A stretch of DNA of 64,000 nucleotides, from NCBI RefSeq assembly GCF_003334385.1, contig NZ_QOWN01000013.1; one strand, 5' to 3'. Positions within the stretch are counted from its first letter, which is position 1; each line of letters starts with the position of its first letter. The notes beneath the pieces are model-generated. The model made no database searches, was not told where the DNA came from, and saw only the letters and a list, made by a program, of their open reading frames with translations. The position numbers and the translations under genes were made by a program. Source of the DNA: Escherichia coli. GTDB taxonomy: Bacteria; Pseudomonadota; Gammaproteobacteria; Enterobacterales; Enterobacteriaceae. Positions 52,070 to 52,089 of this stretch are shown piece after piece.

Positions 52070-52089
52070 TGCTGTTTTTATATACAGTA
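52070..52089. promoter_or_regulatory. LexA SOS box upstream of umuDC
   Basis: CTGT-N8-ACAG core at 52072-52087 (ctgtttttatatacag), 22-37 nt upstream of umuD ATG. Confidence 0.8.

Follow-up and report, generated by a model that had tools for sequence, protein, structure and literature searches.

A rare C at position 19 of the LexA operator of a chromosomal Escherichia coli umuDC operon, probably a near-neutral allele

Repression of umuDC by LexA belongs to the established knowledge of the SOS response, and polymerase V (pol V) is additionally under post-translational control. The umuDC operator is among the tightest SOS operators, so that pol V is made late and only after heavy damage. The stretch of E. 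coli DNA analyzed here (64 kb, hereafter the window) carries this operon behind an operator that differs from the K-12 operator by a single base. The locus raises the question of whether this base alters the control of umuDC or leaves a familiar operon working much as it does in K-12. Very probably, as judged from sequence comparison, the window holds the chromosomal umuDC operon of a strain close to K-12 with a single LexA operator, and the rare C at position 19 of that operator (C19) would leave it strong, weakened slightly if at all.

When the minus strand is read directly from 52089 to 52070, it gives the 20-mer TACTGTATATAAAAACAGCA, the putative LexA operator (SOS box) of umuDC, identified by its sequence, its matrix score, and its orthology to the K-12 site. 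In minus-strand order the region runs ACAGAC-TACTGTATATAAAAACAGCA-TAACTTCAGGCAGATTATT-ATG, with CTGT at 52087..52084, ACAG at 52075..52072, and the first base of the umuD start codon at 52050. The first-pass annotation had placed a CTGT-N8-ACAG motif 22-37 nt 5′ of the umuD ATG, and the coordinates fit exactly when the sequence is read. The 20-mer has the form of an SOS box, an imperfect palindrome of the TACTG(TA)5CAGTA type with its CTG and CAG trinucleotides 10 bp apart, and it departs from the consensus solely at positions 12, 14, and 19. The annotation had also suggested a comparison with the published operator, which in K-12 reads TACTGTATATAAAAACAGTA (PMC3009722 Table 4). That comparison holds for the position of the site and for 19/20 bases, which supports orthology to the established operator, and fails at position 19, where the previously unremarked variant base lies (52071 on the minus strand, MG1655 1230746), C in the window and T in K-12.

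A palindrome of this kind may also arise by chance. With two occurrences in the window for an expectation of 0.98, the bare CTGT-N8-ACAG motif is at chance level, and this would favor a fortuitous match with no regulatory role. For the full 20-mer, the scan with a LexA matrix gives a different picture. The matrix was symmetrised; it combines 17 E. coli SOS boxes published in PMC3009722 Table 4 and excludes umuD. On it the validated boxes score 13.3-27.8 bits, while the maxima of 20 shuffled windows average 12.3 bits and reach 18.0 bits at the highest. The operator scores 25.8 bits (25.84), the top LexA-type site of the 64 kb window, and is thus not sub-threshold as a LexA site. A second, stronger site in the intergenic region was also sought and is absent, the runner-up in the umuD-hlyE spacer scoring just 1.1 bits. 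Given this score, the orthology of the site to the published umuDC box, and its predicted overlap with the promoter of two genes well known to be SOS-regulated, a chance match is hardly credible, and LexA would be expected to bind the box in the source strain. The window itself contains no lexA gene.

The second CTGT-N8-ACAG match lies at 24957-24972, in the pth-ychF spacer; it was considered as a LexA site and rejected as chance, as it falls outside the top 12 matrix scores (<8.4 bits). The scan returned two further LexA-like sequences. The palindrome TACTGGATATTTAAACAGGT, at 56460-56479 in the minC-ycgJ spacer, lies 5′ of both genes, about 260 nt from either start codon; its score, 22.1 bits, exceeds the median of the validated boxes and all of the shuffled-window maxima. 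The region around it is conserved across E. coli, and a literature search found neither TACTGGATATTTAAACAGGT nor a mention of LexA together with ycgJ. The other, TGCTGTTTATTAAACCAGAA, lies inside ycgM (54595-54614) and is probably a chance occurrence, since its score of 18.0 bits equals the best shuffled-window score.

The two genes behind the operator are encoded on the minus strand, umuD (139 aa) at 51631..52050 and umuC (422 aa) at 50363..51631, both assigned by ORF call, NCBIfam match, and K-12 identity. UmuD scores 163.3 bits against NF007621 (curated cut-off 110), is identical to K-12 WP_000897378.1, and keeps the Cys24-Gly25 cleavage site together with Ser60 and Lys97, as expected of an S24 LexA-like self-cleaving protein. 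UmuC scores 893.6 bits against NF002955 (curated cut-off 431), aligns over residues 1-422 of 422, and is identical to K-12 WP_000457616.1; it is a Y-family polymerase with Asp6, Asp101, and Glu102, and carries the beta-clamp motif QLNLF at residue 357. At the nucleotide level the umuDC coding sequence is identical to that of a K-12 derivative. The arrangement is that of the umuDC operon, with umuD immediately 5′ of umuC on one strand and the stop and start codons overlapping. From the sequence and ORF calls, the stop TGA of umuD and the start ATG of umuC share the A at 51631 within a TGATG junction (51629..51633, minus strand; context CGC-TGATG-TTT), which bears out the 1-nt overlap noticed earlier. 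The description of the locus as an intact SOS-regulated error-prone repair operon likewise stands, as it is the K-12 orthologue with identical genes, the expected residues, and scores above the NCBIfam cut-offs. Thus, the umuDC operon is intact. Downstream, a GC-rich hairpin predicted from the sequence lies between the convergent genes umuC and dsbB (50325..50344); it has a T-run on the plus strand, on the dsbB side, and the umuC strand is without a U-tract.

The surroundings of the operon are also those of K-12. The window aligns end to end with MG1655 from narG to pdeG, in reverse orientation and at 99.92% identity, and the gene order ycgN-hlyE-umuD-umuC-dsbB-nhaB is the K-12 order. A number of other differences from K-12 were observed along the window. 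One, at 52339, lies between hlyE and umuD on the side of the hlyE promoter; another is a missense change in hlyE, Ala277Thr, at 53251. Neither is shared by K-12 or by the complete genome SCU-104. The corresponding K-12 span exceeds the window by 536 nt. In the tandem repeat of ldr/rdl toxin-antisense units (12700-13750) the window contains two ldr ORFs (13008-13115 and 13543-13650), as against three in MG1655; an extra ldr/rdl repeat, considered on account of a BLAST overlap, was rejected on this ORF count, which is one fewer than in MG1655. Lastly, ycgV (ORF 26866-29505), encoding an autotransporter adhesin, has a one-base deletion against MG1655 at 29492, near its 3′ end. Its ORF encodes 879 aa, as compared with the 955 aa that correspond to the annotated K-12 coordinates, and the deletion probably truncates the beta-barrel.

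How common C19 is at umuD can be judged from complete E. coli genomes. A 101-nt query matches 5,419 of 5,426 complete genomes, at 100% identity only in SCU-104, while a 40-nt query centered on the box is found exactly in just two genomes, SCU-104 and 98206. The C19 allele at umuD is present in 2 of the complete genomes in which the region occurs, about 5,330 in all. SCU-104 and the window have two more derived SNPs in common (45331 and 61508), besides changes peculiar to each, which indicates that the two form a small lineage that inherited C19. In strain 98206 the haplotype is a different one: identity is 98.9%, hlyE contains an IS element, and the differences that flank the variant most closely, at 52125 and 51715, lie 54 nt and 356 nt away. 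This distinct haplotype points to C19 in 98206 as either an independent mutation or a very short stretch of imported sequence. The element interrupting hlyE in 98206 is an IS4-like ISVsa5 (98206 sequence 9429-11677).

So rare a single base, lying in an A/T-rich stretch, might be suspected of being a sequencing or assembly error that hides a K-12-like operator. Such an error is very improbable, as the base recurs in two independent complete assemblies, one of which (SCU-104) is joined to the window by common descent through the SNPs at 45331 and 61508, and the other of which (98206) carries it on a clearly different haplotype (98.9% identity; differences at 52125 and 51715). By these sequence comparisons, the C19 allele is real. 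Its near-absence at umuD could reflect mild purifying selection, in which case the variant would not be fully neutral.

The predicted cost of C19 for LexA binding is small. The substitution costs 0.7-1.6 bits, depending on the matrix, with the window allele at 25.8 bits and the K-12 allele at 27.3, and raises the computed heterology index by 0.5-1.1, again depending on the matrix. Even so, the box with C19 still outranks those of recN, dinD, sulA, lexA, and recA. Among validated boxes, C is the second commonest base at position 19, occurring in 6 of the 17 (lexA, ruvA, uvrD, cho, polB, and ftsK). According to the account of the LexA-DNA crystal structure in PMC5999292, base-specific contacts are confined to half-site residues 14-18, and position 19 would therefore not be read directly by LexA. 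Furthermore, TACTGTATATAAAAACAGCA occurs as a natural sbmC operator, which shows that natural SOS boxes tolerate this sequence. We infer from these comparisons that the C19 operator remains strong and that umuDC in the source strain would be a tightly repressed, late SOS operon like that of K-12, for whose umuD promoter late induction and a high ED50 have been published.

An alternative is that T-to-C at this position impairs the operator to a functionally relevant degree, making C19 a mild operator-down allele with faster LexA dissociation, higher basal umuDC transcription, and pol V produced earlier or at lower damage doses. The matrix loss and the raised heterology index agree in direction with such an effect, and LexA off-rates, which span about 2.5 logs across natural operators, set the induction timing and the ED50. 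In addition, the rarity of the allele at umuD is consistent with selection for a maximally tight operator. This alternative is nevertheless unlikely, given that position 19 lies beyond the contacted residues 14-18, that C is so frequent at this position in validated boxes, that sbmC uses the identical 20-mer in hundreds of genomes, and that the variant outranks most SOS boxes; moreover, small transcriptional shifts would be buffered by the post-translational control of pol V. A literature search for operator-constitutive mutants of umuDC found only dinB and recA operator mutants, and a search for position 19 of the umuDC box found nothing published.

A relaxed hexamer scan of the minus strand offers two candidate promoters at the operator. 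The first has a candidate −35 TTGATC (52107..52112) separated by a 17-nt spacer from a candidate −10, TACTGT (52084..52089), the box's own left half. A synthetic SOS promoter derived from umuDC retains this TTGATC/TACTGT arrangement with TTGATC changed to TTGACA (PMC9074414). The alternative has a candidate −35 CTGGCA (52099..52104) and, after a 16-nt spacer, a candidate −10 TATAAA inside the box (52077..52082); with 9/12 matches it is the best pair by consensus. Both candidate −10 hexamers fall within the box, and because both pairs fall short of its consensus criteria, a sigma-70 promoter scan called none at the operator. In vitro, the umuD promoter is repressed by H-NS and yields a 202-nt run-off from a fragment with 174 bp of umuD coding sequence (PMC2156107). 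Subtracting the coding part leaves a leader of at most about 28 nt and a +1 between about 52078 and 52070, so that the published run-off would put the umuD start inside the box or at its edge. The transcript starts from tiling arrays (PMC3009722) are too coarse to place it.

The mechanism at the window locus would then be the one known from K-12. A LexA dimer is expected to bind the 20-bp box, which would overlap the −10 element and the transcription start of the umuD promoter, such that bound LexA blocks RNA polymerase. Under heavy damage, RecA* would stimulate LexA self-cleavage, and the operon would be transcribed late and at high doses only. The shared base of the TGATG junction may couple the translation of umuD and umuC. 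UmuD would be cut at Cys24-Gly25 to UmuD′, and UmuD′2C would constitute polymerase V.

The position of the start also bears on a possible effect of the SNP exerted chiefly through the mRNA. With a transcription start near 52078, folding predicts a leader hairpin on the minus strand (52042..52077) in which AAACAGCAUAA pairs with UUAUGUUGUUU; the U-to-C change would turn UAU into CAU, complementary to AUG, and the hairpin would sequester the start codon and lower UmuD translation, which might make up for any weakening of repression. For a 43-nt segment the predicted energy is −9.6 kcal/mol in the window (z −3.25) vs. −4.7 in K-12 (z −0.99), and for 64 nt it is −16.5 vs. −11.6 kcal/mol; these energies and z-scores favor a hairpin in the window allele, and the run-off is compatible with a leader as long as 28 nt. 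However, if the 202 nt include primer tails, or if the TATAAA −10 is in use, the start would lie near 52070; the SNP would then be untranscribed and the two alleles would fold identically. The K-12 hairpin is no better than shuffled sequences and thus gives no sign of an evolved regulatory structure, and AU-rich 11-bp stems are readily melted by ribosomes. An effect exerted mainly through the leader is therefore improbable.

Taken more broadly, the proposal that C19 measurably retunes polymerase V expression, in a small K-12-like lineage (the window strain and SCU-104) and independently in 98206, is doubtful, though somewhat less so than either specific route. Retuning would proceed through faster LexA release, through the start-codon-sequestering hairpin made by the CAU, or through both acting in opposite directions. 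If true, it would be a natural case of single-base fine-tuning of SOS mutagenesis in an operator or leader. With the preferred reading, a strong operator that is weakened slightly if at all, the umuDC locus is textbook knowledge, operon and LexA box alike, and what is new is only a rare, probably near-neutral allele. The expected effect, as predicted from the matrices, is small, and the practical importance is correspondingly low. The natural C19 variant does provide a ready-made isogenic test of how a flanking base that LexA does not contact influences the LexA off-rate and the timing of mutagenesis.

The closest known system is the umuDC operator of K-12, which is like that of the window in its locus, its distance to the umuD ATG, and 19/20 bases. 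From −75 to the ATG, the flanks in K-12 are identical to those of the window except at position 19, where K-12 has T and the window C, and the genes downstream do not differ at all. A heterology index of 2.77 for the K-12 umuDC operator was reportedly given by Fernandez de Henestrosa et al. in 2000. The exact 20-mer of the window, TACTGTATATAAAAACAGCA, is found at sbmC (gyrI) in the CAGCA allele of its SOS box, directly upstream of the gene in PEC011 and about 320-390 complete genomes. K-12 has one and the same box sequence at sbmC and umuD. The sbmC box belongs to a different gene and promoter context, and C19 is common there, whereas it is nearly absent at umuD. As an observation on sbmC itself, its box is polymorphic at position 19 (T/C) in E. 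coli (PEC011 sequence 2501-2521). Likeness at this position extends to the LexA-regulated boxes lexA box 1, ruvA, uvrD, cho, polB, and ftsK, which have C19 as in the window; unlike the window's box, these CAGC-half-site boxes carry several other consensus deviations and score lower (13-21 bits). A rare single-base change inside the umuD operator is likewise found in the O145 strain RM9872, whose operator reads TACTGTAGATAAAAACAGTA; the change there is a G at position 8, in the central spacer, whereas that of the window is at position 19.
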